Assembly: GCA_964016885.1 (NCBI GenBank)
Contig: OZ024741.1
Span: 267,902,001 to 267,966,000, forward strand
DNA length: 64,000 nucleotides
Direction of reading: 5' to 3'
Origin: Eledone cirrhosa
Lineage: Eukaryota
This document shows, one piece after another, positions 5,317 to 63,648 of the stretch. The position numbers and the translations under genes were made by a program. Every line of letters starts with the position of its first letter. Positions within the stretch are counted from its first letter, which is position 1. Below the pieces are notes generated by a model. The model ran no database searches, had not been told where the DNA came from, and saw only the letters and a program-made list of their open reading frames with translations.

Positions 5317-5933
5317 GTATATATATAATATCTCTATATATATGTATATATATAATATCTCTATATATATGTATATATATAATATCTCTATATATATATG
5401 TATATATATAATATCTATATATATATATGTATATATATAATATCTATATATATATATGTATATATATAATATCTCTATATATATGTATATATATAATATC
5501 TCTATATATATGTATATATATAATATCTATATATATATATGTATATATATAATATCTATATATATATATATGTATATATATAATATCTATATATATATAT
5601 GTATATAATACTCCGCCTTTCTCGACTCCATCCTCGCCCCCCTTGTCACCACCCTCCCCTCCCACATCTCCGACACCAACCACGCCCTGCGCCTTTTCGA
5701 CTCCTTCACCTTACCACCCGGCCCACAGCCCTTCCTCTTCACCCTAGACATCAAGTCCCTCTATACCGTCATCCCCCACGCCGACTGCCTACGCGCCCTC
5801 AAACACTACCTCGACCTTCGCCCCTCCCTCATTCCCTCCACCCCCACCCTCCTTCGCCTCGCCGAGCTGGTCCTCCCCCCTCAATTGTTTCTCCTTCTCG
5901 GGTGAGTTTTACCAACAGGTCACGGGGGTAGCC

Positions 5934-7104
5934 ATGGGCACAAGAATGGGCCTGAACTATGCCAACCTTTTTGTTGGCCATGTTGAGGCCCAAATCTTTG
6001 CCCAGTACACCGGCCCCACGCCCGAACTGTACGGTCGTTACATTGACGACTGTATCGGAGCCACGACCCTCACCCGAGAACAGCTCGACTCCTTTCTCTC
6101 CTTCTTCTGCTCCTTCCACCCCTCCCTCCATTTCACCACCTCTATCTCCACCACCCACGTCCACTTCTTAGACATCTCCGTCGCCTTCGACCCCTCCCAC
6201 CACTCCCTCGTCACCTCCGCCTTCTTCAAACCCTCCGACTCCCACTCTTACCTCAACTTCACCTCTTCCCACCCCACCCACACTAAACACTCTATTTCCT
6301 ACTCCCAACTCCTCAGGATCCGCCGCCTCTGTAGCCGAGATGCTGACTTCGAGTCCCAGGCCCTTTCCCTAGTCAGCCATTTCATCCGCAGAGGTTACCC
6401 CCCCTCTCTCGTCCACACCGCTCTCACCTGCGCCCGTGCTGTCCACCGCTCCACCACCCTCACCCCACGCCACCGCACACCCACCCACCATCTCCCCTTC
6501 CCCATCACCTACCACCCCTCCACCTTACCCCTCCACCGCACCATCCGCCGCCTCCAGTCCGACCCCTCCACCTCCCACATCTTCCCAACCCCACCACTCC
6601 CCTCCTTCAAACGCGCACGCAATCTCCGCACCCTCCTCGTCCACAGCTCCCTACCCCCCAACCCACGCTCTGTTTCCCCCCCCCCCCCGGTTCCTTTCCC
6701 TGTTCTAGGCCCCGCTGCAACACCTGTCCCCACATCACCAACACCACCACCTTCCAGGGTCCCAACGGCCACTCTCTCTCTGTCCGGCATGCCTTCCGCT
6801 GCACCTTCTCCAACCTAGTCTACGGACTTCGCTGTACGGAGTGCAGCGCGACTTATGTCGGACAGACGGGACGTCGCCTGGCGGACCGATTCACTGAGCA
6901 CCTCCGGGATATTCGTCTCGGTGGTAGTTCCCCCATCGCCCGCCACTTTGGTGGCCCTAGACATTCCGCACGCCATCTCACAGTCTGTGGCCTACTCCAA
7001 TGCCACGGAACACCCGCCAATCGCCTTAGAGTCGAACAAAGAACTATCTTCATCTTACAGACCCACACTCCCCCCGGCCTGAACTCCCCACCCTTATTCC
7101 TTTA
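5934..7104 (+). pseudogene. PLE reverse transcriptase / GIY-YIG endonuclease, disrupted
   Basis: ORF 5934-6818 holds the RT core and thumb (FFKPSDSHSYLNFTSSHP, SQLLRIRRLCS). The GIY-YIG domain is in another frame after the poly-C run near 6680. Confidence 0.88.
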
Positions 7105-8557
7105 GCCTTCGACCGCCCCCCTCCCCCCACACTTATCCCCCACTAACACCACTAACACACCCCTCCTTTTCACCGCCCACCCCACAACTAACAATACTAA
7201 CACCTCCACTCCACCCCTCATCCGACCACCCTTCCCCAACTAACATACTAACATCTCTCCATTCTTCTCCTCCTCCCCCCTCCTTATCACACGCACACAC
7301 CCACCGGCACATATATACACGCGCTCACACTAAACACACACCCTACTACCACCACTAACCCTCACACCTCCATCCCACCACCCCGCAACTAACCTCACTA
7401 ACACCCCCTGACCCCAAGCACACAAACAAATGCACCCACTTACACCACCCACCCCACACGCAACTAACATCACTAACACCCCCCAACCCCACGCACACGT
7501 ACCCACACACCCTCGTACACCACCAACTCTACACACCCTACCACCACTAACCCCCACTCACACCTGCATTCAACCCTTCCCCACCTCCCGTATACTAACA
7601 CCCACTAACACCGCCTTCATCAAACTACACACACACCAGTACACCACACTCCCTCCATAGAACTACACACACCCTTCTCTCCCCGCTCCACCCACACCCT
7701 CGCTCCACACTCACTCATCCCACTAATATCTCTACTAATACACACACACACCCTCCTCACTCCAACTTTCACACCTACCCATCCTCGCTCCTTTACCATT
7801 CCACCGACTGCTGCTATGGCCTCTGACCACCTCCCAGCACAAACAGACACACAGCACTCCCACTGCTTGACCACTTCCTGTTGCGTGCGCACCCCACATC
7901 TCTCCTCTTCCGACCATCTCTACATAGAATACTCGTATGTGGAACTTGACCACCACGGAATCCACTAAACATCATAGGATTTTACCAACTTTTCAACCAT
8001 CCTCTTAGGGAATCACCTATATAACTCACCCACACAACACACCCAAAAAAAATTTTTTTCTCCACACGCCACCTACACCCACAATACGCTTAAACCCCAC
8101 ACACACATGCTTTCCACCACATATTTACACCCTCAGCCTCCTGATTCCTCTCGCCCCACCCCTCTATCCACACACGCACAGACACTCCGGCCTACAACCC
8201 CCCCCACACACACACCTCTTCCTGAACATGCAACCCAGTTCTTCCCTCAACCCTTACTTTCACATATATACACACACACACACACACACACCACCTTCAG
8301 CCCTCCCCGCTCGGACGCCCCGTCTCCCTCTCCCCACTCCACCTGCCACCACCACTACACACCCCACACCCTTCCACCACCTGTTTTACCCACTTTTTAA
8401 TTTCAGTTTATTTTTATCATGCTTTTATATTTAATTTTATTTCATTCCTTGTATTTTGATCATGCTTTATTTTTATTTTTATTCTTAATTTCATTCACAC
8501 CGTTTCCTTTCGCTATATGTCTCTCCACCACTCTTTGAACTCTGTTCCCACACACTT

Positions 8558-8595
8558 CTCACCTGAGGAAGGGCTTATGCCCGAAACGTCGTTCC
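8558..8595 (+). ncRNA. Minimal hammerhead ribozyme of the PLE 3' end
   Basis: CTGAGGA (8563-8569), stem II GGGC-ttat-GCCC, then GAAAC-GTC with palindromic ACGT. Stem I pairing is weak. Confidence 0.7.
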
Positions 8596-8814
8596 CCACC
8601 ACCACCCCATTCTCCAGAGCGTGAAATTAATAAACATTCGTTGTACTGCCTCTCTGTTTTGTTCCTGTTCAAATTTTTCCATAATATATATATATATATA
8701 ATATCTATATATATATATGTATATATATTATATGTATATATATTATATATATAATATATATATATGTATATATATAATATCTATATATGTATATATATAT
8801 ATATATATAATATC

Positions 8815-14154: not shown

Positions 14155-14162
14155 TGCCAATA

Positions 14163-14196
<34 letters not shown>

Positions 14197-14243
14197 CATA
14201 TACGATTTCAGATAAAGAATCTTGCTAAACAAATTCAGAAACG

Positions 14244-14246
<3 letters not shown>
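14155..14246. repeat. Short dispersed repeat, copy of 25980-26070
   Basis: catatacgatttcagataaagaatcttgctaaacaaattcagaaacgaaa occurs at both sites with one mismatch. Confidence 0.8.
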
Positions 14247-14606: not shown

Positions 14607-14666
<60 letters not shown>

Positions 14667-14959
14667 AAAAACAAATAACGAAACGAAATTAAATTTCGTT
14701 TCGTTTGTAACTCACTTTTGTATGACTGACGCTTAAACAATTAAGTTAAAAATGTACATCCACATATGTATACTGAAATACTAGTATGCATATGAATACA
14801 CACACGTGTACATATGTAGATGTACCGAGTTTTTCACTGGACACTTTACTGTGAGTGTCCAGCTATTCTGTATGTAAACACACAGACAAACCGGTTTTTA
14901 GAGTCATACTGGTTTTCGAGGAAACACCTTTCCTCTATTCTCCAGAAAGCCAGACAAGG

Positions 14960-15004
14960 AATATTGGACTAGTTTCGATGTTGTTACATCTCATCAGCAA
15001 TATT
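14960..15004 (-). ncRNA. Type I hammerhead ribozyme (also at 15426, 15892, 16358, 16824)
   Basis: Minus strand reads AAUAUUG-CUGAUGA-GAUG-UAACAA-CAUC-GAAAC-UA-GUC/CAAUAUU. Perfect 7-bp stem I, 4-bp stem II, full core and a GUC cleavage triplet. Confidence 0.95.
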
Positions 15005-15063
15005 TACCTATCTTCCGGCCTTTCTAGAGAATCGTAAAAGCACATATCGTTATATGCTTTTTC

Positions 15064-15098
15064 TATGAAAATTAGTAGTGGGCAGACTAATTTGCATA
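15064..15098 (-). promoter_or_regulatory. Octamer-containing inverted repeat conserved between the 466- and 474-bp units
   Basis: tatgaaaatta-N13-taatttgcata with ATTTGCAT at 15090-15097. The counterpart in the 474-bp unit is at 56323-56358. Function is inferred only. Confidence 0.4.
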
Positions 15099-17295
15099 GA
15101 GCGTGAGTACGTACCGGTTCAGCGGAGACGATAAAAACAAATAACGAAACGAAATTAAATTTCGTTTCGTTTGTAACTCACTTTTGTATGACTGACGCTT
15201 AAACAATTAAGTTAAAAATGTACATCCACATATGTATACTGAAATACTAGTATGCATATGAATACACACACGTGTACATATGTAGATGTACCGAGTTTTT
15301 CACTGGACACTTTACTGTGAGTGTCCAGCTATTCTGTATGTAAACACACAGACAAACCGGTTTTTAGAGTCATACTGGTTTTCGAGGAAACACCTTTCCT
15401 CTATTCTCCAGAAAGCCAGACAAGGAATATTGGACTAGTTTCGATGTTGTTACATCTCATCAGCAATATTTACCTATCTTCCGGCCTTTCTAGAGAATCG
15501 TAAAAGCACATATCGTTATATGCTTTTTCTATGAAAATTAGTAGTGGGCAGACTAATTTGCATAGAGCGTGAGTACATACCGGTTCAGCGGAGACGATAA
15601 AAACAAATAACGAAACGAAATTAAATTTCGTTTCGTTTGTAACTCACTTTTGTATGACTGACGCTTAAACAATTAAGTTAAAAATGTACATCCACATATG
15701 TATACTGAAATACTAGTATGCATATGAATACACACACGTGTACATATGTAGATGTACCGAGTTTTTCACTGGACACTTTACTGTGAGTGTCCAGCTATTC
15801 TGTATGTAAACACACAGACAAACCGGTTTTTAGAGTCATACTGGTTTTCGAGGAAACACCTTTCCTCTATTCTCCAGAAAGCCAGACAAGGAATATTGGA
15901 CTAGTTTCGATGTTGTTACATCTCATCAGCAATATTTACCTATCTTCCGGCCTTTCTAGAGAATCGTAAAAGCACATATCGTTATATGCTTTTTCTATGA
16001 AAATTAGTAGTGGGCAGACTAATTTGCATAGAGCGTGAGTACGTACCGGTTCAGCGGAGACGATAAAAACAAATAACGAAACGAAATTAAATTTCGTTTC
16101 GTTTGTAACTCACTTTTGTATGACTGACGCTTAAACAATTAAGTTAAAAATGTACATCCACATATGTATACTGAAATACTAGTATGCATATGAATACACA
16201 CACGTGTACATATGTAGATGTACCGAGTTTTTCACTGGACACTTTACTGTGAGTGTCCAGCTATTCTGTATGTAAACACACAGACAAACCGGTTTTTAGA
16301 GTCATACTGGTTTTCGAGGAAACACCTTTCCTCTATTCTCCAGAAAGCCAGACAAGGAATATTGGACTAGTTTCGATGTTGTTACATCTCATCAGCAATA
16401 TTTACCTATCTTCCGGCCTTTCTAGAGAATCGTAAAAGCACATATCGTTATATGCTTTTTCTATGAAAATTAGTAGTGGGCAGACTAATTTGCATAGAGC
16501 GTGAGTACGTACCGGTTCAGCGGAGACGATAAAAACAAATAACGAAACGAAATTAAATTTCGTTTCGTTTGTAACTCACTTTTGTATGACTGACGCTTAA
16601 ACAATTAAGTTAAAAATGTACATCCACATATGTATACTGAAATACTAGTATGCATATGAATACACACACGTGTACATATGTAGATGTACCGAGTTTTTCA
16701 CTGGACACTTTACTGTGAGTGTCCAGCTATTCTGTATGTGAACACACAGACAAACCGGTTTTTAGAGTCATACTGGTTTTCGAGGAAACACCTTTCCTCT
16801 ATTCTCCAGAAAGCCAGACAAGGAATATTGGACTAGTTTCGATGTTGTTACATCTCATCAGCAATATTTACCTATCTTCCGGCCTTTCTAGAGAATCGTA
16901 AAAGCACATATCGTTATATGCTTTTTCTATGAAAATTAGTAGTGGGCAGACTAATTTGCATAGAGCGTGAGTACGTACCGGTTCAGCGGAGGCGATAAAA
17001 ACAAATAACGAAACGAAATTAAATTTCGTTTCGTTTGTAACTCACTTTTGTATGACTGACGCTTAAACAATTAAGTTAAAAATGTACATCCACATATGTA
17101 TACTGAAATACTAGTATGCATATGAATACACACACGTGTACATATGTAGATGTACCGAGTTTTTCACTGGACACTTTACTGTGAGTGTCCAGCTATTCTG
17201 TATGTAAACACACAGACAAACCGGTTTTTAGAGTCATACTGGTTTTAACTTAATTATATATATATGAATATATATATATATATATATATGAATAT

Positions 17296-22449: not shown

Positions 22450-22609
22450 TATATATATATATATATATATTAATATATATATATATGAATATAGACATAG
22501 AATATTCGAAAATATTCTGTATGTTTATAATAAACATTTTGAAGACCTAATCGCTATAGAATAGAATACGTCACGTATTACAATTAGATTCTCGATAAAA
22601 GCAAGGGAA

Positions 22610-22652
22610 GTAATCTACGCGTTTCATTCTTGTTAGAATTCATCAGGACTAC
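22610..22652 (-). ncRNA. Type I hammerhead ribozyme (7 minus-strand copies every 310 bp, to 24470)
   Basis: GUAGUC-CUGAUGA-AUUC-UAACAA-GAAU-GAAAC-GC-GUA/GAUUAC. Stem I is extended by the 16-bp attctcgataaaagca / tgcttttatcgagaat pairing. Confidence 0.93.
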
Positions 22653-24731
22653 ATATCCAGTGCTTTTATCGAGAATGACACAGCTAGAGACTTATAGAAT
22701 ACTTAGCTGTGTACAGGAACTGGTTTGAAAGAGCGGTTGCCGGTCCGGCAGAAATTAGAAATTGGAATAAATGCTCTGAAATAGCGATATATATATGAAT
22801 ATAGACATAGAATATTCGAAAATATTCTGTATGTTTATAATAAACATTTTGAAGACCTAATCGCTATAGAATAGAATACGTCACGTATTACAATTAGATT
22901 CTCGATAAAAGCAAGGGAAGTAATCTACGCGTTTCATTCTTGTTAGAATTCATCAGGACTACATATCCAGTGCTTTTATCGAGAATGACACAGCTAGAGA
23001 CTTATAGAATACTTAGCTGTGTACAGGAACTGGTTTGAAAGAGCGGTTGCCGGTCCGGCAGAAATTAGAAATTGGAATAAATGCTCTGAAATAGCGATAT
23101 ATATATGAATATAGACATAGAATATTCGAAAATATTCTGTATGTTTATAATAAACATTTTGAAGACCTAATCGCTATAGAATAGAATACGTCACGTATTA
23201 CAATTAGATTCTCGATAAAAGCAAGGGAAGTAATCTACGCGTTTCATTCTTGTTAGAATTCATCAGGACTACATATCCAGTGCTTTTATCGAGAATGACA
23301 CAGCTAGAGACTTATAGAATACTTAGCTGTGTACAGGAACTGGTTTGAAAGAGCGGTTGCCGGTCCGGCAGAAATTAGAAATTGGAATAAATGCTCTGAA
23401 ATAGCGATATATATATGAATATAGACATAGAATATTCGAAAATATTCTGTATGTTTATAATAAACATTTTGAAGACCTAATCGCTATAGAATAGAATACG
23501 TCACGTATTACAATTAGATTCTCGATAAAAGCAAGGGAAGTAATCTACGCGTTTCATTCTTGTTAGAATTCATCAGGACTACATATCCAGTGCTTTTATC
23601 GAGAATGACACAGCTAGAGACTTATAGAATACTTAGCTGTGTACAGGAACTGGTTTGAAAGAGCGGTTGCCGGTCCGGCAGAAATTAGAAATTGGAATAA
23701 ATGCTCTGAAATAGCGATATATATATGAATATAGACATAGAATATTCGAAAATATTCTGTATGTTTATAATAAACATTTTGAAGACCTAATCGCTATAGA
23801 ATAGAATACGTCACGTATTACAATTAGATTCTCGATAAAAGCAAGGGAAGTAATCTACGCGTTTCATTCTTGTTAGAATTCATCAGGACTACATATCCAG
23901 TGCTTTTATCGAGAATGACACAGCTAGAGACTTATAGAATACTTAGCTGTGTACAGGAACTGGTTTGAAAGAGCGGTTGCCGGTCCGGCAGAAATTAGAA
24001 ATTGGAATAAATGCTCTGAAATAGCGATATATATATGAATATAGACATAGAATATTCGAAAATATTCTGTATGTTTATAATAAACATTTTGAAGACCTAA
24101 TCGCTATAGAATAGAATACGTCACGTATTACAATTAGATTCTCGATAAAAGCAAGGGAAGTAATCTACGCGTTTCATTCTTGTTAGAATTCATCAGGACT
24201 ACATATCCAGTGCTTTTATCGAGAATGACACAGCTAGAGACTTATAGAATACTTAGCTGTGTACAGGAACTGGTTTGAAAGAGCGGTTGCCGGTCCGGCA
24301 GAAATTAGAAATTGGAATAAATGCTCTGAAATAGCGATATATATATGAATATAGACATAGAATATTCGAAAATATTCTGTATGTTTATAATAAACATTTT
24401 GAAGACCTAATCGCTATAGAATAGAATACGTCACGTATTACAATTAGATTCTCGATAAAAGCAAGGGAAGTAATCTACGCGTTTCATTCTTGTTAGAATT
24501 CATCAGGACTACATATCCAGTGCTTTTATCGAGAATGACACAGCTAGAGACTTATAGAATACTTAGCTGTGTACAGGAACTGGTTTGAAAGAGCGGTTGC
24601 CGGTCCGGCAGAAATTAGAAATTGGAATAAATGCTCTGAAATAGCGATATATATATGAATATAGACATAGAATATTCGAAAATATTCTGTATGTCTCTAG
24701 CTGTGTCATTCTCGATAAAAGCACTGGATAT

Positions 24732-24774
24732 GTAGTCCTGATGAATTCTAACAAGAATGAAACGCGTAGATTAC
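24732..24774 (+). ncRNA. Type I hammerhead ribozyme (also at 25042 and 25352)
   Basis: gtagtcctgatgaattctaacaagaatgaaacgcgtagattac is read directly on the plus strand. Confidence 0.93.
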
Positions 24775-25625
24775 TTCCCTTGCTTTTATCGAGAATCTAA
24801 TTGTAATACGTGACGTATTCTATTCTATAGCGATTAGGTCTTCAAAATGTTTATTATAAACATACAGAATATTTTCGAATATTCTATGTCTATATTCATA
24901 TATATATCGCTATTTCAGAGCATTTATTCCAATTTCTAATTTCTGCCGGACCGGCAACCGCTCTTTCAAACCAGTTCCTGTACACAGCTAAGTATTCTAT
25001 AAGTCTCTAGCTGTGTCATTCTCGATAAAAGCACTGGATATGTAGTCCTGATGAATTCTAACAAGAATGAAACGCGTAGATTACTTCCCTTGCTTTTATC
25101 GAGAATCTAATTGTAATACGTGACGTATTCTATTCTATAGCGATTAGGTCTTCAAAATGTTTATTATAAACATACAGAATATTTTCGAATATTCTATGTC
25201 TATATTCATATATATATCGCTATTTCAGAGCATTTATTCCAATTTCTAATTTCTGCCGGACCGGCAACCGCTCTTTCAAACCAGTTCCTGTACACAGCTA
25301 AGTATTCTATAAGTCTCTAGCTGTGTCATTCTCGATAAAAGCACTGGATATGTAGTCCTGATGAATTCTAACAAGAATGAAACGCGTAGATTACTTCCCT
25401 TGCTTTTATCGAGAATCTAATTGTAATACGTGACGTATTCTATTCTATAGCGATTAGGTCTTCAAAATGTTTATTATAAACATACAGAATATTTTCGAAT
25501 ATTCTATGTCTATATTCATATATATATCGCTATTTCAGAGCATTTATTCCAATTTCTAATATATATATATATATATTTATATATATTAATATATATATAT
25601 ATTAATATATATATATATATATATA

Positions 25626-25979: not shown

Positions 25980-25988
25980 GCCAATATG

Positions 25989-26020
<32 letters not shown>

Positions 26021-26068
26021 CATATACGATTTCAGATAAAGTATCTTGCTAAACAAATTCAGAAACGA

Positions 26069-26100
<32 letters not shown>

Positions 26101-26689
26101 TATATATATAAATATATATATAAATATATATATTAATATATATATATATATTAATATATATATATATTAATATATATATATTAATATATATATATATTAA
26201 TATATATATATATTAATATATATATATATATATATATTAACATATATATATATATTAATATATATATATATATTAATATATATATATATATTAATATCCA
26301 CCTCTTTTATACCATAAACGTGGTATTGTCTTTGCGCGTAATTGTTTTTCACCGCTCCTATTAATGACGTATCTTATTCGTTTTTTCCCGTTCTTTGCCA
26401 GCGAACGTTTCCACGAACCAAAGTATCGTCTTCCTGTCTTCCTTTTTTGAAATATACACTTCTGCATTTAGAGATTGACTTTGTTAGTTTCAGAAGATCC
26501 CGTTAAGGGTGAAAGCAGCGATTCTTTGCTTAAACTTTAATCTGTTATTTTAAGTATATTTGCTCTACGGTTCTTATATATTTGCTATATATTTATCCTT
26601 ATCGAGCCCTCTTTGGATTTTAGTCTTGAAATTTATTATTATTACTATTTGGCTCCCTCGGTTGAGCACACTACTGACTTATATTCATC

Positions 26690-28776
26690 ATGCAGAAACA
26701 ACATCTGTATATTTCTACAAAGAACATACCTGTACCAAGCAGGAAAACATACCTAAAACTCCTGATACAGAAAACAGACGCGTTCATTAAAAGGTTGCGT
26801 TGGCGTGCCTTTTATTTCGATAACCCGCGAAAAGCAGACAACAAACATGATAAATTTGGATTTAAAACCTATAATAACCCCCCCGTGTAACTCAGCATTG
26901 CTACCCTTCGGAGTATCAAATTTCGGAATAGGAGCAATTCCTTCCAGCAAGACCTGAAGAATAGAATTCGTTCTATTAAGGATTCTAATGCCGTGCACGT
27001 CCATTCCGACAAAACTGGCAACCTATATCAAGTGGAGCGCAGTACTTACCATCAACTACTACATAATGCTGTAACTAAGGATTACCGTAAAACTAATCGG
27101 TGCGTCATCAATGAAATCAACGATGCTGGGTTTAAAATCACATCTGATCCGAACCTCTGGACCCTATTTCTCCCCACTTTACCCTGAAGGATCAAAAATC
27201 CAATTTTCCGAACAACCCCTCTATTCGGCTTATTAACCCTACGAAGTCCGATTTAGGTAGACTTAGTAAAACGATTCTTGATAGAATTATACCTGTAATT
27301 AGAAGTTTGGCCCCTCTTGCACTGTGGAACAATTCTTTCGCGGTGATTGATTGGTTCAATGGCATATGCAACAAGGAACATTGCCGTTTCATACAATTCG
27401 ACATCAACAATTACTACTCCTCCATCACTTTACCACTTCTCCTTAGAGCTATCAATTTCACTAAAACACTCACAGTGGTTAAGGATTTTTAAGTTGATGT
27501 CATCGTCAATGCCCGAAAGTCAGTGATTAATTTCGACGACTCTATTTGGATTAAAAAATCCAATAGTACCCCATACGACGTTAGTATGGGCGCCAGTGAT
27601 TCTGCGGAGGTTACTAATCTTATCGGCCTTTTTCCTTCTTTTCTCTATCAAGGACGAATTCCCCAACGCGGGCGGTGGTTTGTACCGTGACGATGGTCTT
27701 TTGACCATGACTAAGTGCGGACCTCGTGCTTGCGACAGGTTCAGAAAAGAACTCACAGCCTTCTTTAAAGGCTTCAACCTCTCTATACAGGTTGAGGCCA
27801 ATCTCTCGGTCGTTAATTACCTCGACGATACCCTCAATTTATTGAATGGGTTGTATTACCCGTATAGAAAGCCAAATGATACGCTTAATTACATAAGTAA
27901 GCATTCCAACCATCCTGCCAGCATAACCAAGAACCTGGTAAGAAATGTTTCGTTGAGGCTTTCCCGTCTTTCCACCAACGAGCGTATTTTCAACGACCAT
28001 TCCACTTATTACAATGAAGCTCTTGCTCGAAGTGGTTTTGTCGATAGGTAGCATATACAGAGTACGAAAATAGACCTAGAAGAAATAGATCCCATCGCAT
28101 TTGTTGGTATAACCCACCATATAATATGGAGGTGGCCACACCATTAGCTAAGATCTTTCTTTCCCTTATTACGAAGCATTTTCCCCCTACACATAAATAT
28201 AGTAAAATTTTGAATAGAAATACTATTAAAATTTCTTACTCTACGACTCCTAACCTTGCACATAACATCACAGCTTCAAATTTAGGTAAACTACCTAGCC
28301 GTAGGAACACGTGCAACCCTGTAGTTAGTAGTAACTGTAATTGTAGGAATCGGGTTGATTGCCCCCTATCCGGGAAATGCCTCTCTAGTAACATTGTCTA
28401 CAAATGTAAGGTTGTAACACCCACGTCCTGTTGGGCCTACATAGGGTTAACCGCCAATAGATTAAAGCAGCATCTTTACACGCATACCCATTCTTTTCGT
28501 TACCCTCTAAGAAGGAATATGACGTCACTTTCAGCTTATATCTGGAGTCTAAAAGACAACCACACCCAATATAAGTTACACTGGGAGATCCTAGCTAGGG
28601 CTAGATCGTATAACGGAAATAAAAGACCATGTGACCTCTGCGCCGCTGAGGCCCTGGAAATACTCTACGCCACAGACCACATCTTAAACAGAAAATCTGA
28701 GGCAATTTCGGCTTGTAAACATAAATTGCACAAAACTTTCCTGTATTACAACCCCACGTTATACCCTAACGGATAG
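26690..28776 (+). pseudogene. PLE RT + GIY-YIG polyprotein with several stops and frameshifts
   Basis: Colinear ORF pieces at 26690, 26993, 27307, 27596 and 28126. Confidence 0.88.
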
Positions 28777-29911
28777 TACGATCTATACGTGGATATTTTA
28801 CGTCTTAATGTGGGAGCTAAGTATATGTTTTGTTTATACCATTACTTATTTGCATAGGTAAGTATATATTACCCGTATGTTTCGTGAAGGTAGGTATACC
28901 TTCTCGTACGTATATTTGATTGTTTATGTTATGGCGTATAATTTTTTTATTTTTTTTATTCTGGTACATATGGTTTGGCTATGTGTATACGGGAGTTTTG
29001 CGTCTGTGTGAGTATGCAGGTTTGTACGTATGTAGGGTGTGTGTATATGTGTACTTCATGTTTTGGTTGACTTACGTCTCCGAACATTCGTGTATTTACA
29101 TGTAGGTATGTGTGTGCGCTTGTTATATACGTATTTATTTATTTATATACGTTTATATAATTATTTATTTATTTGTATACACGCATACACACACACACAT
29201 ATTTATATGTGCGTGGTTTTGTATACCTATGGTAAGGGTTTTGCGTATGCTTGTGTATGTATGTATTTGTTTGCGTGTATGTATTTATTTATTTCTATTA
29301 CTTCTGTATTGTATTTATTTACTTTGTTCTTAACTCTGTAGCGGAGATTCATTCGGTCTCCTAGTTAGGACTTTAGTCTACGACTTCTGCTATACCATTT
29401 ACGTGGTTTTGTCTTTGTGTGCTATTGTTCTCCACGCTCCACATATGACTTATTATCTTCATTTTTTTCGTTCATTGCCAGAGAACGTCTCTATGAACCA
29501 CCTAAGAGAACATTGGTCTACAACCTCTTTTATACCATAAACGTGGTTCTGTCTTTGCGCGTAACTGTTTTTCACTGCTCCTATTAATGACGTATCTTAT
29601 TCGTTTTTTACCGTTCTTTGCCAGCGAACGTTTCCACGAACCAAAGTATCGTCTTCCTGTCGTCCTCCGGTTGCAACGTTTTTTTAAATACCCACTTCTG
29701 CGTTTACAGATTGACTTTGTTAGTTTCAGAAGATCCCGTTAAGGGTAAAAGCAGCGATTCTTTGCTTAAACTTTGCTTAAACTTTATTTTTATTTTACTC
29801 CTCTTATTTTGCTCCTTTTACTTTACTCTTTAAACTCCTCCCAACTTATCCCCACATATATTCTTCTGTTTTGGCTTTGTCAATGCTTGTATACTTTGTA
29901 TTTACTCTTTA

Positions 29912-29957
29912 TGCTCTGAAGAGTCCCACTTCTAGTGTGGACGAAACACTGTTAGCA
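29912..29957 (+). ncRNA. Minimal type I hammerhead ribozyme of the PLE 3' end
   Basis: UGCU-CUGAAGA-GUCC(cacuucuagugu)GGAC-GAAACA-C-UGUU/AGCA, followed by ATTAAA. Confidence 0.85.
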
Positions 29958-30139
29958 ATTAAAGATATACCTATGTTCTAAGCGCTCTTTGTTGTTAATT
30001 GTATATTAATATATATATATATATATATATATTAATATATATATATATTAATATATATATATATGTTAATATATATATATATATATATTAATATATATAT
30101 ATATATTAATATATATATCTATTAATATATATATATATT

Positions 30140-35940: not shown

Positions 35941-38045
35941 ATCATCATCATCATCATCATCGGTTAACGCCCATCTTCCATGCTTGCATGGGTTTGGACG
36001 GGAGTTTTCCCACTTGAGGCAAGAGTGGTTGTCTTGCTCACATAGGACTGTCTGGCGGGTTTTCTACGGCTGGATGCCCTTCCTAACACCAATAACATTT
36101 ACAGTGTGGAACTGGGACGTTTTTACCGTGTTACCTACACGGCCACATTACAGCATGGACTATGTGTTTTTTTGTCGTGACACCTACACGACCTCATTTG
36201 TTTCAGGCTGGATGTTGTGGTACCAACATAAATTTACATTGAAAGGGGTGGTGTGGATGGAGTGGGGGTAGTGGGACGGGGGGTGTATTTTGCTAGAGGT
36301 GCCTACTGACTGTAGTAGGTTTCACTTTGTACTTAGGTAAGGCGGGTCTTCTCTATTACTGTGTAGCGCCAAAGATCTCGGTCCAGTGACATTGTCTTGG
36401 AGAGTGTAAGTGTGTGAGGTCGGAATTTATCAAGTTGTCCCAGGTTTTTCTGGGTCTGCCTACTCCGTGGCTACCGTCTATTTTTATTGCCCTGCACTTT
36501 TTTATACAGCTGTCGTCTTTCATGCGCATCACGTGACCATACCAACGTAGCCTTCTCTCGAGTAAACAACATCTGATCCCTCTTATTTCTAATTTTTCCC
36601 TTAGTTCGTTTATGCTTTGCCGTTCACGTATATTACTATTACACATCCAGCAGATCATGCAAGCTCCGTTCCTCTCCAGTCTGCGTATATCCTCTGCACA
36701 CGATGACCAGGTCTCACTGCCATGCAACATTGCTGTTTGTATGCAGGCATCATACAGCCTGCCTTTCATTTTTAGGCAGAACCCTTTAGCGGCTAATAGT
36801 GGTATAAGCTCTCTGAACTTTTTCCATCCAGTTCTGACTCTAGCTACTGTCCTTTCAGAGCACCCTCCCCCACTGCTGATTTTGTCACCCAGGTAACGGA
36901 AGCTGTCCACTATTTCTAGAGAACCATCTGTGTAATTGAATGAGCTAGTATTCTGTGGGCACTTGCTGCTACTTATTGCACCAGAGCACCGGCCACATAT
37001 AAAATCTATGTTCTTAGTTAGCTTACCTGTGATCCCACTACATCTTTTATGCACCCATACTTTGCATTTGGGACATAAAATGGAGTTTCTACCTACTCCT
37101 TTCCTACATACTGAGCATGGCCATTTCCCGGATGGGACCGGCGCCCTATTTTCCTTCCTACAAACTAGAACTTTAGTCTTAGACAGGTTAATTTTAAGGC
37201 CTTTTGATTCTAAGCCATGCTTCCATGTTTGCAATTTCTTCTCTAGTTCGGACATTGATTCAGCTATGAGCGTTAGATCATCTGCGTATAGGAGTTCCCA
37301 TGGGCAGCCGGTCTTACACTCGACTGTTATAGCCTGAAGGGCAATAATAAATAGTAGGGGGTTAAGAACAGAGCCCTGATGAACACCAACTTTTACACTA
37401 AACTCTTCACTATATTCGTTGTTAATTCTAACCTTGCTGACTGTTTCTTTATACATGGCTTGTATAGCTCTCACAAGCCATTCATCAACACCTAGTTTTC
37501 TAAGAGCCCACCAGATAATGGAACGGAGGACTCTGTCGAAGGCTTTCTCCAAGTCGACAGAAGCTAAGTATAGGGGTTTATTTAGCTAGGTACTTCTCCT
37601 GTAGTTGTCGTACAATGAAAAGAGCGTCTGTGGTACTTTTGCCTGACACAAACCCGAACTGCATTTCATCTAGATGAATTCTCTCTCTGATTAGTTGCAC
37701 TATTACTTTTTCTGTGACCTTCATGACCTGGTCGATTAATTTAATGCCTCTATAATTACTCCTATCTAGGGCATCTCCTTTACCCTTGTAGCAGTTAATG
37801 ATGATGCTGCTACGCCAGTCCTTCGGAACAACCCCATTCTGTATGACATGGTTTACTATCCGGGTGACCATAGTGTTACCCACCGTTCCAGGAGCTTTCA
37901 GCAACTATTTCCGAAGCCCCAGCCGCCTTACCCGTCTTCATATCTTTGATTGCCTTACTTATTATACTACCTTCGACTAACACTGCTGGTCCCTCTATTG
38001 GGTCGTTGTGGGGAGACTGTCTTTCTCCCATTTGTTCTCCCCATT
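35941..38045 (-). mobile_element. RTE LINE family A variant, 5'-truncated and frameshifted
   Basis: ORFs 37578-37904 and 36356-37552 (QGSVLNP, YADD), 3' UTR, and an (ATC)n tail at the left. Confidence 0.95.
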
Positions 38046-38121
38046 TAGTAGCCTTTCGTAGTAACAGCTTCCAAGCACAATACATATATACACAATATAT
38101 ATATATATATTTACACACACA

Positions 38122-38167
<46 letters not shown>

Positions 38168-38242
38168 ATATATATATATATATATATATACAATATATAT
38201 ATATATATATATATACAATATATATATATATATATATATATA

Positions 38243-38416
38243 TAGGAATGAGTAGGACGTTTCGACGGCTAATTCTTGTCCAGAATTAGCCGTCGAAACG
38301 GCTTGAGCTCAGCCGTCGGGGTCCTACTGGTTCCTATTACCCACTCTCCTACCCTAAGTATTGAGTACTTTGGTGCGTTATGGTCCACCTGGTTCCTTAC
38401 CACATTTCCTCCATTA
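38243..38416. mobile_element. Small fold-back family copy
   Basis: cgtttcgacggctaattct...agaattagccgtcgaaacg inverted arms, followed by the conserved ...ggtccacctggttccttaccacatttcctccatta end. Confidence 0.8.
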
Positions 38417-38445
38417 TATATATATATATATATACAATATATATT

Positions 38446-38495
<50 letters not shown>

Positions 38496-38528
38496 ATATA
38501 TATATATATATACAATATATATATATAT

Positions 38529-38570
<42 letters not shown>

Positions 38571-38870
38571 ATATATATATATATATATACAATATATATT
38601 TATATATATATATATATATATACACAATATATATATATATACAATATATATTTATATATATATATACACTATATATATATATATATACAATATATATATA
38701 TATATACACTATATATATATATATATATACAATATATATATATATACACTATATATATATATACACTATATATATATATATATACACTATATATATATAT
38801 ACACTATATATATATATATATACACTATATATATATATATACAATATATATATATCTACACTATATATAT

Positions 38871-38941
<71 letters not shown>

Positions 38942-38955
38942 ATATATATACATAT

Positions 38956-38991
<36 letters not shown>

Positions 38992-39137
38992 ATATATATA
39001 TATATACTATATATATATATATATACTATATATATATATATATATACTATATATATATATACTATATATATATACAATATATATATATATATATACTATA
39101 TATATATACAATATATATATATATATATACTATATAT

Positions 39138-55935: not shown

Positions 55936-55984
<49 letters not shown>

Positions 55985-56042
55985 GTAAGTATGCATGTAT
56001 ACGTACATACATATATGTATACAGACGTACAGTAGCATCCAC

Positions 56043-56073
<31 letters not shown>

Positions 56074-56231
56074 CATATGCATACAGGTACACATACATAT
56101 ATGCACGTATCAGTTTAGCGGCGCTTATTATAACGTCGCTTTGTTCGTTTGTAAACAAACTGAACAGCCTGAATTTATGCCATACGGTGTTAAGGCAACC
56201 ACGTCACCTTTTTGTTCAACACTGACACAGG

Positions 56232-56276
56232 AACGATGTACTAGTTTCAAGCTTGTTAGCTATCATCAGCACCGTT
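56232..56276 (-). ncRNA. Type I hammerhead ribozyme (9 minus-strand copies every 474 bp, to 60024)
   Basis: AACGGUG-CUGAUGA-U-AGC-UAACAA-GCU-U-GAAAC-UA-GUA/CAUCGUU. Stem I is 7 bp with one G-U pair. Confidence 0.93.
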
Positions 56277-56516
56277 TACCCATCTGCCAGATAGTTGAAC
56301 GTTCGAAAGTATATACTTTCCTTATGAAAATTAACGGCTGAGCAGCCTAATTTGCATATTGAGTGAGTTAAATCGGTAAGGCATACCGAAAACGATAAAT
56401 TGAAACAAAATGAAAACGAAATTTCATTTCTCACTCTTAGTATGGCACTTACTTAAATGTAAGTATGCATGTATACGTACATACATATATGTATACAGAC
56501 GTACAGTAGCATCCAC

Positions 56517-56547
<31 letters not shown>

Positions 56548-56990
56548 CATATGCATACAGGTACACATACATATATGCACGTATCAGTTTAGCGGCGCTT
56601 ATTATAACGTCGCTTTGTTCGTTTGTAAACAAACTGAACAGCCTGAATTTATGCCATACGGTGTTAAGGCAACCACGTCACCTTTTTGTTCAACACTGAC
56701 ACAGGAACGATGTACTAGTTTCAAGCTTGTTAGCTATCATCAGCACCGTTTACCCATCTGCCAGATAGTTGAACGTTCGAAAGTATATACTTTCCTTATG
56801 AAAATTAACGGCTGAGCAGCCTAATTTGCATATTGAGTGAGTTAAATCGGTAAGGCATACCGAAAACGATAAATTGAAACAAAATGAAAACGAAATTTCA
56901 TTTCTCACTCTTAGTATGGCACTTACTTAAATGTAAGTATGCATGTATACGTACATACATATATGTATACAGACGTACAGTAGCATCCAC

Positions 56991-57021
<31 letters not shown>

Positions 57022-57464
57022 CATATGCATACAGGTACACATACATATATGCACGTATCAGTTTAGCGGCGCTTATTATAACGTCGCTTTGTTCGTTTGT
57101 AAACAAACTGAACAGCCTGAATTTATGCCATACGGTGTTAAGGCAACCACGTCACCTTTTTGTTCAACACTGACACAGGAACGATGTACTAGTTTCAAGC
57201 TTGTTAGCTATCATCAGCACCGTTTACCCATCTGCCAGATAGTTGAACGTTCGAAAGTATATACTTTCCTTATGAAAATTAACGGCTGAGCAGCCTAATT
57301 TGCATATTGAGTGAGTTAAATCGGTAAGGCATACCGAAAACGATAAATTGAAACAAAATGAAAACGAAATTTCATTTCTCACTCTTAGTATGGCACTTAC
57401 TTAAATGTAAGTATGCATGTATACGTACATACATATATGTATACAGACGTACAGTAGCATCCAC

Positions 57465-57495
<31 letters not shown>

Positions 57496-57938
57496 CATAT
57501 GCATACAGGTACACATACATATATGCACGTATCAGTTTAGCGGCGCTTATTATAACGTCGCTTTGTTCGTTTGTAAACAAACTGAACAGCCTGAATTTAT
57601 GCCATACGGTGTTAAGGCAACCACGTCACCTTTTTGTTCAACACTGACACAGGAACGATGTACTAGTTTCAAGCTTGTTAGCTATCATCAGCACCGTTTA
57701 CCCATCTGCCAGATAGTTGAACGTTCGAAAGTATATACTTTCCTTATGAAAATTAACGGCTGAGCAGCCTAATTTGCATATTGAGTGAGTTAAATCGGTA
57801 AGGCATACCGAAAACGATAAATTGAAACAAAATGAAAACGAAATTTCATTTCTCACTCTTAGTATGGCACTTACTTAAATGTAAGTATGCATGTATACGT
57901 ACATACATATATGTATACAGACGTACAGTAGCATCCAC

Positions 57939-57969
<31 letters not shown>

Positions 57970-58412
57970 CATATGCATACAGGTACACATACATATATGC
58001 ACGTATCAGTTTAGCGGCGCTTATTATAACGTCGCTTTGTTCGTTTGTAAACAAACTGAACAGCCTGAATTTATGCCATACGGTGTTAAGGCAACCACGT
58101 CACCTTTTTGTTCAACACTGACACAGGAACGATGTACTAGTTTCAAGCTTGTTAGCTATCATCAGCACCGTTTACCCATCTGCCAGATAGTTGAACGTTC
58201 GAAAGTATATACTTTCCTTATGAAAATTAACGGCTGAGCAGCCTAATTTGCATATTGAGTGAGTTAAATCGGTAAGGCATACCGAAAACGATAAATTGAA
58301 ACAAAATGAAAACGAAATTTCATTTCTCACTCTTAGTATGGCACTTACTTAAATGTAAGTATGCATGTATACGTACATACATATATGTATACAGACGTAC
58401 AGTAGCATCCAC

Positions 58413-58443
<31 letters not shown>

Positions 58444-58886
58444 CATATGCATACAGGTACACATACATATATGCACGTATCAGTTTAGCGGCGCTTATTA
58501 TAACGTCGCTTTGTTCGTTTGTAAACAAACTGAACAGCCTGAATTTATGCCATACGGTGTTAAGGCAACCACGTCACCTTTTTGTTCAACACTGACACAG
58601 GAACGATGTACTAGTTTCAAGCTTGTTAGCTATCATCAGCACCGTTTACCCATCTGCCAGATAGTTGAACGTTCGAAAGTATATACTTTCCTTATGAAAA
58701 TTAACGGCTGAGCAGCCTAATTTGCATATTGAGTGAGTTAAATCGGTAAGGCATACCGAAAACGATAAATTGAAACAAAATGAAAACGAAATTTCATTTC
58801 TCACTCTTAGTATGGCACTTACTTAAATGTAAGTATGCATGTATACGTACATACATATATGTATACAGACGTACAGTAGCATCCAC

Positions 58887-58917
<31 letters not shown>

Positions 58918-59360
58918 CATATGCATACAGGTACACATACATATATGCACGTATCAGTTTAGCGGCGCTTATTATAACGTCGCTTTGTTCGTTTGTAAAC
59001 AAACTGAACAGCCTGAATTTATGCCATACGGTGTTAAGGCAACCACGTCACCTTTTTGTTCAACACTGACACAGGAACGATGTACTAGTTTCAAGCTTGT
59101 TAGCTATCATCAGCACCGTTTACCCATCTGCCAGATAGTTGAACGTTCGAAAGTATATACTTTCCTTATGAAAATTAACGGCTGAGCAGCCTAATTTGCA
59201 TATTGAGTGAGTTAAATCGGTAAGGCATACCGAAAACGATAAATTGAAACAAAATGAAAACGAAATTTCATTTCTCACTCTTAGTATGGCACTTACTTAA
59301 ATGTAAGTATGCATGTATACGTACATACATATATGTATACAGACGTACAGTAGCATCCAC

Positions 59361-59391
<31 letters not shown>

Positions 59392-59834
59392 CATATGCAT
59401 ACAGGTACACATACATATATGCACGTATCAGTTTAGCGGCGCTTATTATAACGTCGCTTTGTTCGTTTGTAAACAAACTGAACAGCCTGAATTTATGCCA
59501 TACGGTGTTAAGGCAACCACGTCACCTTTTTGTTCAACACTGACACAGGAACGATGTACTAGTTTCAAGCTTGTTAGCTATCATCAGCACCGTTTACCCA
59601 TCTGCCAGATAGTTGAACGTTCGAAAGTATATACTTTCCTTATGAAAATTAACGGCTGAGCAGCCTAATTTGCATATTGAGTGAGTTAAATCGGTAAGGC
59701 ATACCGAAAACGATAAATTGAAACAAAATGAAAACGAAATTTCATTTCTCACTCTTAGTATGGCACTTACTTAAATGTAAGTATGCATGTATACGTACAT
59801 ACATATATGTATACAGACGTACAGTAGCATCCAC

Positions 59835-59865
<31 letters not shown>

Positions 59866-60474
59866 CATATGCATACAGGTACACATACATATATGCACGT
59901 ATCAGTTTAGCGGCGCTTATTATAACGTCGCTTTGTTCGTTTGTAAACAAACTGAACAGCCTGAATTTATGCCATACGGTGTTAAGGCAACCACGTCACC
60001 TTTTTGTTCAACACTGACACAGGAACGATGTACTAGTTTCAAGCTTGTTAGCTATCATCAGCACCGTTTACCCATCTGCCAGATAGTTGAACGTTCGAAA
60101 GTATATACTTTCCTTATGAAAATTAACGGCTGAGCAGCCTAATTTGCATATTGAGTGAGTTAAATCGGTAAGGCATACCGAAAACGATAAATTGAAACAA
60201 AATGAAAACGAAATTTCATTTCTCACTCTTAGTATGGCACTTACTTAAATGTAAGTATGCATGTATACGTACATACATATATGTATACAGACGTACAGTA
60301 GCATCCTGTGTCAGTTCCTGTGTCAGTGTTGAACAAAAAGGTGACGTGGTTGCCTTAACACCGTATGGCATAAATTCAGGCTGTTCAGTTTGTTTACAAA
60401 CGAACAAAGCGACGTTATAATAAGCGCCGCTAAACTGATACGTGCATATATGTATGTGTACCTGTATGCATATG

Positions 60475-60505
<31 letters not shown>

Positions 60506-60745
60506 GTGGATGCTACTGTACGTCTGTATACACATATGTATGTACGTATACATGCATACTTACATTTAAGTAAGTGCCATACTAAGAGTGAGAAATGAAA
60601 TTTCGTTTTCATTTTGTTTCAATTTATCGTTTTCGGTATGCCTTACCGATTTAACTCACTCAATATGCAAATTAGGCTGCTCAGCCGTTAATTTTCATAA
60701 GGAAAGTATATACTTTCGAACGTTCAACTATCTGGCAGATGGGTA

Positions 60746-60790
60746 AACGGTGCTGATGATAGCTAACAAGCTTGAAACTAGTACATCGTT
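60746..60790 (+). ncRNA. Type I hammerhead ribozyme (also at 61220, 61694, 62168, 62642)
   Basis: aacggtgctgatgatagctaacaagcttgaaactagtacatcgtt is read directly on the plus strand. Confidence 0.93.
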
Positions 60791-60948
60791 CCTGTGTCAG
60801 TGTTGAACAAAAAGGTGACGTGGTTGCCTTAACACCGTATGGCATAAATTCAGGCTGTTCAGTTTGTTTACAAACGAACAAAGCGACGTTATAATAAGCG
60901 CCGCTAAACTGATACGTGCATATATGTATGTGTACCTGTATGCATATG

Positions 60949-60979
<31 letters not shown>

Positions 60980-61422
60980 GTGGATGCTACTGTACGTCTG
61001 TATACATATATGTATGTACGTATACATGCATACTTACATTTAAGTAAGTGCCATACTAAGAGTGAGAAATGAAATTTCGTTTTCATTTTGTTTCAATTTA
61101 TCGTTTTCGGTATGCCTTACCGATTTAACTCACTCAATATGCAAATTAGGCTGCTCAGCCGTTAATTTTCATAAGGAAAGTATATACTTTCGAACGTTCA
61201 ACTATCTGGCAGATGGGTAAACGGTGCTGATGATAGCTAACAAGCTTGAAACTAGTACATCGTTCCTGTGTCAGTGTTGAACAAAAAGGTGACGTGGTTG
61301 CCTTAACACCGTATGGCATAAATTCAGGCTGTTCAGTTTGTTTACAAACGAACAAAGCGACGTTATAATAAGCGCCGCTAAACTGATACGTGCATATATG
61401 TATGTGTACCTGTATGCATATG

Positions 61423-61453
<31 letters not shown>

Positions 61454-61896
61454 GTGGATGCTACTGTACGTCTGTATACATATATGTATGTACGTATACA
61501 TGCATACTTACATTTAAGTAAGTGCCATACTAAGAGTGAGAAATGAAATTTCGTTTTCATTTTGTTTCAATTTATCGTTTTCGGTATGCCTTACCGATTT
61601 AACTCACTCAATATGCAAATTAGGCTGCTCAGCCGTTAATTTTCATAAGGAAAGTATATACTTTCGAACGTTCAACTATCTGGCAGATGGGTAAACGGTG
61701 CTGATGATAGCTAACAAGCTTGAAACTAGTACATCGTTCCTGTGTCAGTGTTGAACAAAAAGGTGACGTGGTTGCCTTAACACCGTATGGCATAAATTCA
61801 GGCTGTTCAGTTTGTTTACAAACGAACAAAGCGACGTTATAATAAGCGCCGCTAAACTGATACGTGCATATATGTATGTGTACCTGTATGCATATG

Positions 61897-61927
<31 letters not shown>

Positions 61928-62370
61928 GTGGATGCTACTGTACGTCTGTATACATATATGTATGTACGTATACATGCATACTTACATTTAAGTAAGTGCC
62001 ATACTAAGAGTGAGAAATGAAATTTCGTTTTCATTTTGTTTCAATTTATCGTTTTCGGTATGCCTTACCGATTTAACTCACTCAATATGCAAATTAGGCT
62101 GCTCAGCCGTTAATTTTCATAAGGAAAGTATATACTTTCGAACGTTCAACTATCTGGCAGATGGGTAAACGGTGCTGATGATAGCTAACAAGCTTGAAAC
62201 TAGTACATCGTTCCTGTGTCAGTGTTGAACAAAAAGGTGACGTGGTTGCCTTAACACCGTATGGCATAAATTCAGGCTGTTCAGTTTGTTTACAAACGAA
62301 CAAAGCGACGTTATAATAAGCGCCGCTAAACTGATACGTGCATATATGTATGTGTACCTGTATGCATATG

Positions 62371-62401
<31 letters not shown>

Positions 62402-62844
62402 GTGGATGCTACTGTACGTCTGTATACATATATGTATGTACGTATACATGCATACTTACATTTAAGTAAGTGCCATACTAAGAGTGAGAAATGAAATTTC
62501 GTTTTCATTTTGTTTCAATTTATCGTTTTCGGTATGCCTTACCGATTTAACTCACTCAATATGCAAATTAGGCTGCTCAGCCGTTAATTTTCATAAGGAA
62601 AGTATATACTTTCGAACGTTCAACTATCTGGCAGATGGGTAAACGGTGCTGATGATAGCTAACAAGCTTGAAACTAGTACATCGTTCCTGTGTCAGTGTT
62701 GAACAAAAAGGTGACGTGGTTGCCTTAACACCGTATGGCATAAATTCAGGCTGTTCAGTTTGTTTACAAACGAACAAAGCGACGTTATAATAAGCGCCGC
62801 TAAACTGATACGTGCATATATGTATGTGTACCTGTATGCATATG

Positions 62845-62875
<31 letters not shown>

Positions 62876-63038
62876 GTGGATGCTACTGTACGTCTGTATA
62901 CATATATGTATGTACGTATACATGCATACTTACATTTAAGTAAGTGCCATACTAAGAGTGAGAAATGAAATTTCGTTTTCATTTTGTTTCAATTTATATA
63001 TATATATATATATATATTGTATATATATATATATATAT

Positions 63039-63425: not shown

Positions 63426-63648
63426 TGTGAAGGCGTGTGGCCGAGTGGTTAGAGAATTGGATTCCTAATCGTGAGATTGTGACTTCGATTCCTGGACCGG
63501 GCGATGCATTATGTCCTTGAGCAAGACACTTTATTTCACGTTGCTCCTTCTACCTGGAGTTGCGACCGATAGAGAGTACTAGCAATTAGAAAGACCAACG
63601 GAAACATTGTTTCCTCGGTCCGATTTGACGAAAGTCGATCGACTGTCG

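Follow-up and report, generated by a model that had tools for sequence, protein, structure and literature searches.

Three tandem arrays lie within (TA)n in the 64,000-nt stretch of Eledone cirrhosa DNA analysed here (the window), and every unit in them carries a hammerhead ribozyme motif. What kind of element are they, and does the loop and bulge that their hammerheads have in common point to an unusual ribozyme, to a common origin, or to something already known? The units were defined with Tandem Repeats Finder as 466, 310 and 474 nt. The 466-nt array (14664..17246, minus strand) holds 5.5 copies and is followed by a short inverted piece of the same unit (17243..17255, plus strand), read directly from the sequence, which ends at a second fixed site near unit position 228. 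The other two insertions occupy both strands: that of the 310-nt unit (22477..25560) has 7.2 minus-strand copies and then 2.8 plus-strand copies, and that of the 474-nt unit (55980..62997) has 9.1 followed by 5.7. Copies inside an array are 99-100% identical, unit GC is 34-37%, and the units are non-coding, the longest frame of the 474-nt unit being 101 codons on the opposite strand. A motif scan of the window found one hammerhead per unit, 29 altogether (5 in the 466-nt, 10 in the 310-nt and 14 in the 474-nt array).

The first of the five 466-unit hammerheads, identified by sequence, motif scan and Rfam HH9, spans 14957..15009 on the minus strand from internal loop 1 to internal loop 1. Its helix I, AUAUUG/CAAUAU, pairs 15003-14998 with 14966-14961; the core CUGAUGA at 14997-14991 is followed by stem II, GAUG/CAUC, and then by GAAAC-UA-GUC, with the predicted cut site between 14967 and 14966. 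Loop 2, UAACAA, occupies 14981..14986. Internal loop 1 consists of a 5' strand, G-U-A-A (15004..15007), and a 3' strand, U-C-C-U (14957..14960), the first U of which is present in 28 of 29 representative sequences. Past the internal loop, stem I has a long distal extension (14936..15035, minus strand) that closes the monomer in the predicted fold. Equivalent hammerheads are found by motif scan at, for example, 24726-24778 (plus strand) in the 310-nt array and 60741-60793 (plus strand) in the 474-nt array; the latter has U·U at its stem II base and is also recovered by HH9 alignment. In all 29 the loop reads UAACAA and the internal loop UA(A/U)/U, and the stems and loop quoted in the initial annotation are present in the sequence of all three units.

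The stems had also been described as fully covarying, which proves to be right for most of their length. In an alignment of the 29 representatives, drawn from four lineages, two-sided compensatory change occurs in 12 of the 18 named pairs; covariation is seen in five of the six pairs of helix I and in the three outer pairs of helix II. The covariation score was 0.564, compared with at most 0.143 for slid partners and 0.224 for shuffles (0/500), the shuffle control being one that ignores the relatedness of the 29 rows within their four lineages. Helix I is 6 bp long and 96% paired, and in the common form it leads into an internal loop G-N-U-A-N opposite U-N-C. A seventh stem I pair (A-U) had been counted as well; it forms in only 9 of the 29 representatives, and its U belongs to the internal loop. 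Helix II has three firm pairs, and its junction-proximal fourth pair, where the description breaks down, is unpaired in 20 of the 29 rows: within the window helix II is 4 bp in the 466- and 310-nt units and 3 bp in the 474-nt unit, with the U·U at its base.

From their sequence, we identify the array motifs as canonical metazoan type I hammerheads and the loop and bulge as the ordinary docking motif of that class: the core CUGANGA...GAAA...UH, three helices and an open helix I are present, and the nucleotides expected to dock loop 2 on internal loop 1 are conserved. As characterized in the part of Cervera and de la Pena 2014 consulted here (PMC4209133), the canonical form has a 6-bp helix I and a 4-bp helix II that make contact via conserved loop nucleotides, and a palindromic helix III of 1-2 bp; its monomers cleave poorly, whereas its dimers are active. 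The units share with it the 6-bp helix I, the conserved loop nucleotides and the short helix III (1-2 bp) with its palindromic loop, and differ in that the last bulge base of the window's 466- and 474-nt units is A, where known canonical type I hammerheads have a pyrimidine. The match to Schistosoma mansoni Sm-alpha, as given in the available sections of Dufour et al. 2009 (PMC2632901), runs position for position, with a 6-nt loop Y-A-A-N-N-A and an internal loop G-U-A-N opposite U-C-C-N. The 5' strand of internal loop 1 is thereby the counterpart of G5U6A7C8, and by inference from the same source the first U of the 3' strand is predicted to be the reverse-Hoogsteen partner of loop 2 A6. The same internal loop occurs in Rfam Hammerhead_HH9 (RF02275), whose consensus loop is CAAAAA. 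Loop 2 begins with C in Schistosoma and HH9, whereas that of the units begins with U, able to pair with A6; in the Rfam consensus the former also have a longer, stable helix III, unlike the array motifs. HH9 aligns full length to the units, with 38.9 bits for the 466-nt unit (E 1.2e-8) and 23.0 and 18.5 bits for the others, so that none of the hammerheads reaches the RF02275 gathering threshold of 52 bits, and an Rfam scan of the window returned no family at or above its cut-off. Among known systems, newt satellite 2 and axolotl HHR_Amex1/2 are close to the array hammerheads, and the U·U of the 474-nt unit is as in HHR_Amex2 (both from the portion of PMC7229834 consulted).

Because the loop and bulge are those of an ordinary metazoan type I motif, also found in HH9 and Schistosoma, they show constraint rather than special efficiency or kinship, and they add nothing new to hammerhead biology. 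The initial annotation was correct that the array hammerheads are unlike the minimal Penelope-type ones in the window, since those at 8563 and 29916 lack both the UAANNA loop and the bulge. The minimal Penelope form, with a long helix II bearing an extra base, a short helix I and no loop-loop motif, is not that of the array motifs, a contrast between canonical and Penelope-type hammerheads that the available text of PMC4209133 already describes. Further hammerhead-like families with other helices II and III were encountered at fetched loci (L023:2848, minus strand; L028:2600, plus strand; L031, L049, L092, L095, L099 and L109), some of them with GAAAG in place of GAAAC and a five-base loop 3.

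How such a motif cleaves turns on helix III, which is absent from the initial annotation. Its local form is AC-NN-GU only, 1-2 bp, and the hexamer as a whole is a palindrome, ACUAGU at 14968..14973 (minus strand) in the 466-nt unit and ACGCGU in the 310-nt unit. The two central bases change together and are self-complementary in 28 of the 29 rows. A helix III that is palindromic and only 1-2 bp long indicates cleavage as a double hammerhead, in which the hexamers of neighbouring units are predicted to form one 6-bp helix III. In constrained folding of adjacent ribozymes the double hammerhead is better than two single ones by 15.0, 17.2 and 10.8 kcal/mol for the three units; it is the minimum-energy fold for the 310-nt unit (probability 0.99), the inter-unit helix III has a low predicted probability in the 466-nt (0.03) and 474-nt (0.00) units, and the local, single-unit helix III has a predicted probability of 0, all from a program that cannot model a 2-nt loop or tertiary contacts.

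These observations bear on the reading of the initial annotation, according to which the motif is an extended hammerhead of unusual efficiency whose monomer cleaves, which selection keeps invariant and which all three families have inherited from one ancestor. A coral retrozyme with canonical tertiary contacts does cleave fast when its motif is single, at about 0.8 per min (PMC7229834, in part), and the loop and bulge are constrained, as such a ribozyme would have it. Against this reading, helix III measures 1-2 bp, its loop is palindromic and its local form has a predicted probability of 0, and the U·U at the base of stem II in the 474 lineage is that of the slow axolotl HHR_Amex2, whose monomer cleaved 22% in an hour and whose dimer did much better (same portion of PMC7229834). 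Special or necessarily efficient catalysis is thus not supported, the architecture being the canonical type I that PMC4209133, as far as consulted, calls poor as a monomer, and we regard this reading as improbable. Even dimers need not be active in vitro: of the Xenopus retrozyme dimers in the available part of Li, Clavereau and Pollet 2026 (bioRxiv 10.64898/2026.07.22.740005), 1 of 9 cleaved.

Whether the loop is invariant can be judged across the 3.0-Gb genome, which was scanned with a pattern that fixes only the core and the ends of helix III and leaves the loop free. This gave 39,462 matches, compared with 58 for a reversed control, so the motif is not a product of chance; ACUAGU (23,648) and ACGCGU (14,352) account for 38,000 of them. 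UAACAA, described as invariant, is the loop in 27,894 of the 39,462 matches and fails as a rule beyond the window. With the 4,912 matches changed at position 4 (UAA[AGU]AA) and the 5,027 changed at position 5 (UAAN[CGU]A), the form UAANNA covers about 37,800 (96%) and is the genome-wide rule. Position 1 is other than U in 357 copies and position 6 other than A in 188, out of some 38,000-39,000, which leaves about 1,080 matches for loop positions 2-3, other lengths and chance. In a slightly shorter pattern, the U of the 5' bulge strand is changed in 580 matches, many of which are junction truncations or belong to one local satellite. The variants at positions 4 and 5, found in about a quarter of copies, sit in young, expanding subfamilies of every lineage, and their abundance is a further point against a ribozyme held invariant. 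All of these counts are of copies, not events, and a few subfamilies dominate them. For loop positions 2, 3 and 6 the parsimony counts from the 29-row alignment are not taken as proof, since some of its rows were retrieved with patterns in which those positions are fixed; the genome counts are free of that bias.

Under this wider sampling the loop is conserved at positions 1-3 and 6 and not at positions 4-5. The data support constraint on loop positions 1-3 and 6 and on the bulge U, with positions 4-5 free to drift; the proposal that selection maintains the docking nucleotides is borne out to that extent. Because a dispersed, mobile 312-nt subfamily has the loop AAAUAA and one 12-copy two-armed insertion carries A6 -> G, the loop contacts are not absolute. 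With their four lineages, the roughly 39,000 young copies provide natural variants at each contact position, and hence a test bed for them.

The claim of one ancestor for the three families divides in the same way. With the ribozyme removed, the 466- and 474-nt bodies align end to end (z 24, 0 of 200 shuffles), which indicates that these two units have common ancestry. The 310-nt body shows no alignment to either in local scores with shuffles (z 1.2 and 1.7), and this part of the claim, together with the efficient-monomer reading that contains it, loses ground. The shared loop is no proof of kinship, because amniote HH9 and Schistosoma hammerheads have the same motif. There are slight hints of kinship for the 310-nt unit: the sharp insertion site reads AT|CG in all three families, a point in favour of a single ancestor, and z exceeds 4 in 2 of 12 loci of an old family. 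Global identity of the unit bodies was dropped as a measure, as it lies at 70-74% of aligned pairs in all three pairs and does not discriminate. The old family just mentioned is dispersed and homologous to the 474-nt unit, with stem II AGGG/CCCA and A·A at its base, the loop UAAUGA and the helix III ACAUGU; a separate pattern for ACAUGU gave 611 matches, and the sequence upstream aligns to the 474-nt unit in 12 of 12 loci (z at least 5.7).

We conclude that the three arrays are very probably new members of the known non-LTR retrozymes, each unit with a canonical type I hammerhead that is likely to cut paired with that of a neighbouring unit, as a double hammerhead, loop 2 being predicted to dock on the stem I internal loop. 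We consider the element type already known because the loop and bulge match a known contact motif and the copies are likely cut in pairs, yielding circles for Penelope-type copying. Each is a non-coding tandem array in which two or more units of a few hundred bp, every one with its type I hammerhead, follow one another; the units combine low GC with a highly self-paired monomer; and they are dispersed and mobile, with 39,462 motifs and separate insertions in 40 fetched regions. The monomers, as the segments between successive cut sites, have a much more favourable predicted folding than shuffled sequences (z -10.3, -4.7 and -7.6 for the three units), and the predicted fold is closed by stem I, as a circle would be. 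The metazoan non-LTR retrozymes of Cervera and de la Pena 2020 (PMC7229834) and bioRxiv 10.64898/2026.07.22.740005, in the parts consulted, are likewise non-coding tandem units with one type I hammerhead each, GC below 50%, a self-paired monomer, thousands of copies and co-existing Penelope-like elements. At 466 and 474 nt, two of the units are slightly above the 150-450 bp range given in the former and inside the 51-972 bp of the latter. Neither source, in its accessible sections, describes retrozymes with head-to-head arms that stop at two fixed 3' ends, or with a U6-like motif upstream. We found no prior description in cephalopods or with a U6 promoter in the literature searched, and the supplement of PMC7229834, outside that search, may include these or related units.

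The ends of the insertions suggest how such arrays may be made. We compared 40 regions chosen from match lists, mostly from the first 62 Mb of contig 1 and favouring matches on both strands, so that the share of two-armed insertions among them is not a genome estimate. The 5' ends are scattered; each family has two sites at which its 3' ends meet (TA)n, namely unit positions 139 and 163-172 (310), 301-303 and 228-234 (466), and 313-318 and 253-260 (474). In the window itself the 310-nt insertion stops at 139 and 172, the 474-nt insertion at 259 and 318, and the 3' end of the 466-nt array, read as RNA, falls at 302-303. Where both ends of a two-armed insertion are visible, the arms point outwards with one end at each fixed site in 31 of 32 cases (17/17 for the 310-nt, 9/9 for the 466-nt and 5/6 for the 474-nt unit, the window's two included), a count that omits single-armed and edge-cut cases and in which two of the nine 466 cases look like duplicates. 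In one of four sequencing runs of unrecorded kind, (TA)n is joined at 15131 and at 15597, which are the same fixed end. Polymerase III terminators were considered as the source of the insertion ends and not adopted; they fit the 466 site, which follows a T5 run, and not the 310 or 474 sites.

Penelope elements leave a comparable record: a 5'-truncated copy in inverted orientation, a bias to (TA)n, and one end that carries a tail (available part of Craig et al. 2021, PMC8557442), the tail being the stretch between two reverse-transcription start sites, with both target strands cut and extended (Frangieh et al. 2024, PMC11167929). The arrays resemble such insertions in the inverted 5'-truncated copy at the 5' end, the (TA)n targets and the two-site tail, and ends with one fixed site per arm fit the Penelope 'tail' signature. 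The two sites lie about 26, 59 and 72 nt apart in the units, compared with 30-40 bp in Penelope (PMC11167929 and the consulted part of PMC8557442). Unlike Penelope, the units have no ORF, and both arms hold many exact unit copies. The two fixed ends are direct genomic evidence on the machinery that moves animal retrozymes, and they also bear on how Penelope elements make inverted, tailed insertions.

An alternative is that the arrays arise by DNA-level amplification or by copying of uncleaved linear transcripts, the hammerhead being a relic of a Penelope repeat that looks conserved through recent founder expansion. The 99-100% identity of array copies and the few subfamilies that dominate the counts could be so explained, and Penelope insertion in vitro did not need hammerhead cleavage (PMC11167929). 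However, four lineages with different stems have kept the core, loop positions 1-3 and 6, the bulge and the palindrome through two-sided changes, and the arms, random at their 5' ends and fixed at their 3' ends, hold as many as 14 exact copies, which fits a template circle copied over and over. We therefore consider a mere relic very unlikely, and retain the retrozyme reading. Amplification at the DNA level was seen at one site: a local satellite of about 55 kb made of 469-nt units (contig 1, 95,631,000-95,687,000), with higher-order variation and an altered bulge, is DNA-level amplification after insertion. Other observations on the insertions are a 310-unit insertion nested in the internal AT tract of a 474-unit insertion (locus L168) and a near-identical 90-nt non-repeat segment in the (TA)n flanks of both the 466 and 310 arrays (14155-14246 and 25980-26070). 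The inversion junctions show microhomology in the 310 array (24683-24700) and a short duplicated piece in the 474 array (60300-60320), as expected from template switching or end joining.

A possible helper family is represented in the window by a broken Penelope-like element (26290..30010, plus strand), which also served as an object of comparison and carries a long-helix-II hammerhead without the UAANNA loop (29916-29946, plus strand). Its family is abundant, with tens of thousands of candidates, some of which have open frames of 709-713 aa (L192, L194, L196). The nearest Atlas clusters of the 713-aa frames carry GIY-YIG, RVT_1 and HTH_animal; Pfam assigned neither the Penelope-like fragments nor the 713-aa frames to a family, and a comparison with solved structures gave no match, so the putative Penelope-like assignment is based on Atlas neighbours and layout. 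A second, probable Penelope-like element (5748-8680, plus strand) ends in (TA)n, has a minimal hammerhead at 8563-8586 and has a fragment with no Pfam match. No sequence homology was found between the units and either of two Penelope-like elements compared with them, and none links the units to the abundant family.

A further question is how the arrays are transcribed. A 12-mer, TATGCAAATTAG, lies 131 nt upstream of the cut site (15087..15098, minus strand) and recurs upstream of this genome's U6 genes, in a comparison made once the data had been seen. The form TATGCAAAT(T/G)AG is common to the 466-nt, 474-nt and old families, 116-131 nt upstream of the cut, and a TATA-like stretch lies 42-43 nt beyond the 12-mer in all three; the 310-nt unit is without the 12-mer. 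There are 19 matches to it in the window, all in the 466 and 474 arrays, where 0.13 are expected. Of 14 U6 regions examined, four have the 12-mer, 76-78 nt upstream of U6; these represent three unlinked loci (among L227, L228, L229 and L242), and each has a long T run as well as TATA at -30; the remaining ten regions resemble pseudogenes. None of the six U2 upstream regions has the motif, a result that bears on the polymerase II promoter of snRNA type that was also considered. Several features speak against a simple polymerase III model: the spacing from 12-mer to TATA is about 4 nt shorter than in U6, T4-T5 runs occur inside the units, and the 12-mer also forms a hairpin in the RNA fold. A U6-like promoter has a precedent in that newt satellite 2 has an snRNA-type promoter (cited in the consulted text of PMC2220036). 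The 12-mer is a candidate promoter element of the 466/474 lineage, and with it the question of how these arrays come to be transcribed has an answer that can be put to the test.

Taken as a sequence of events, we propose that transcription of an array would come first, driven perhaps by the U6-like element in the 466/474 lineage, and that the palindromic hexamers of adjacent units would then pair as a 6-bp helix III, allowing both sites to cleave. Loop A6 would pair with the internal-loop U and hold the active fold, in the manner of the Schistosoma ribozyme. With its own stem I closing it, the monomer could be ligated into a circle, and a Penelope-type RT/GIY-YIG protein may nick (TA)n and copy the circle from two fixed internal sites, one for each target strand, which would yield multi-copy, head-to-head arrays. 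Selection on the elements' own replication would hold the bulge and loop positions 1-3 and 6 constant and leave positions 4-5 to drift. Our more specific hypothesis is that the retrozymes record Penelope integration on a circular template, in which an RT acting as a dimer starts synthesis on both nicked strands of (TA)n, each at its own defined site of one ribozyme-made circle, and rolls round it, producing the head-to-head arms, and that one lineage moreover transcribes from a captured U6-type promoter ahead of the hammerhead; we advance this combination tentatively, at somewhat less than even confidence.

The window also holds other elements. Two open frames that face each other, 42485-45586 (plus strand; 1,034 codons) and 46384-49503 (minus strand; 1,040 codons), are young LINE copies, and the first of them has endonuclease, RT and PHD domains. 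Directly after the flank of the 474 array, at 63426-63560, lies a short interspersed element with tRNA-like boxes, which may resemble an octopus SINE.
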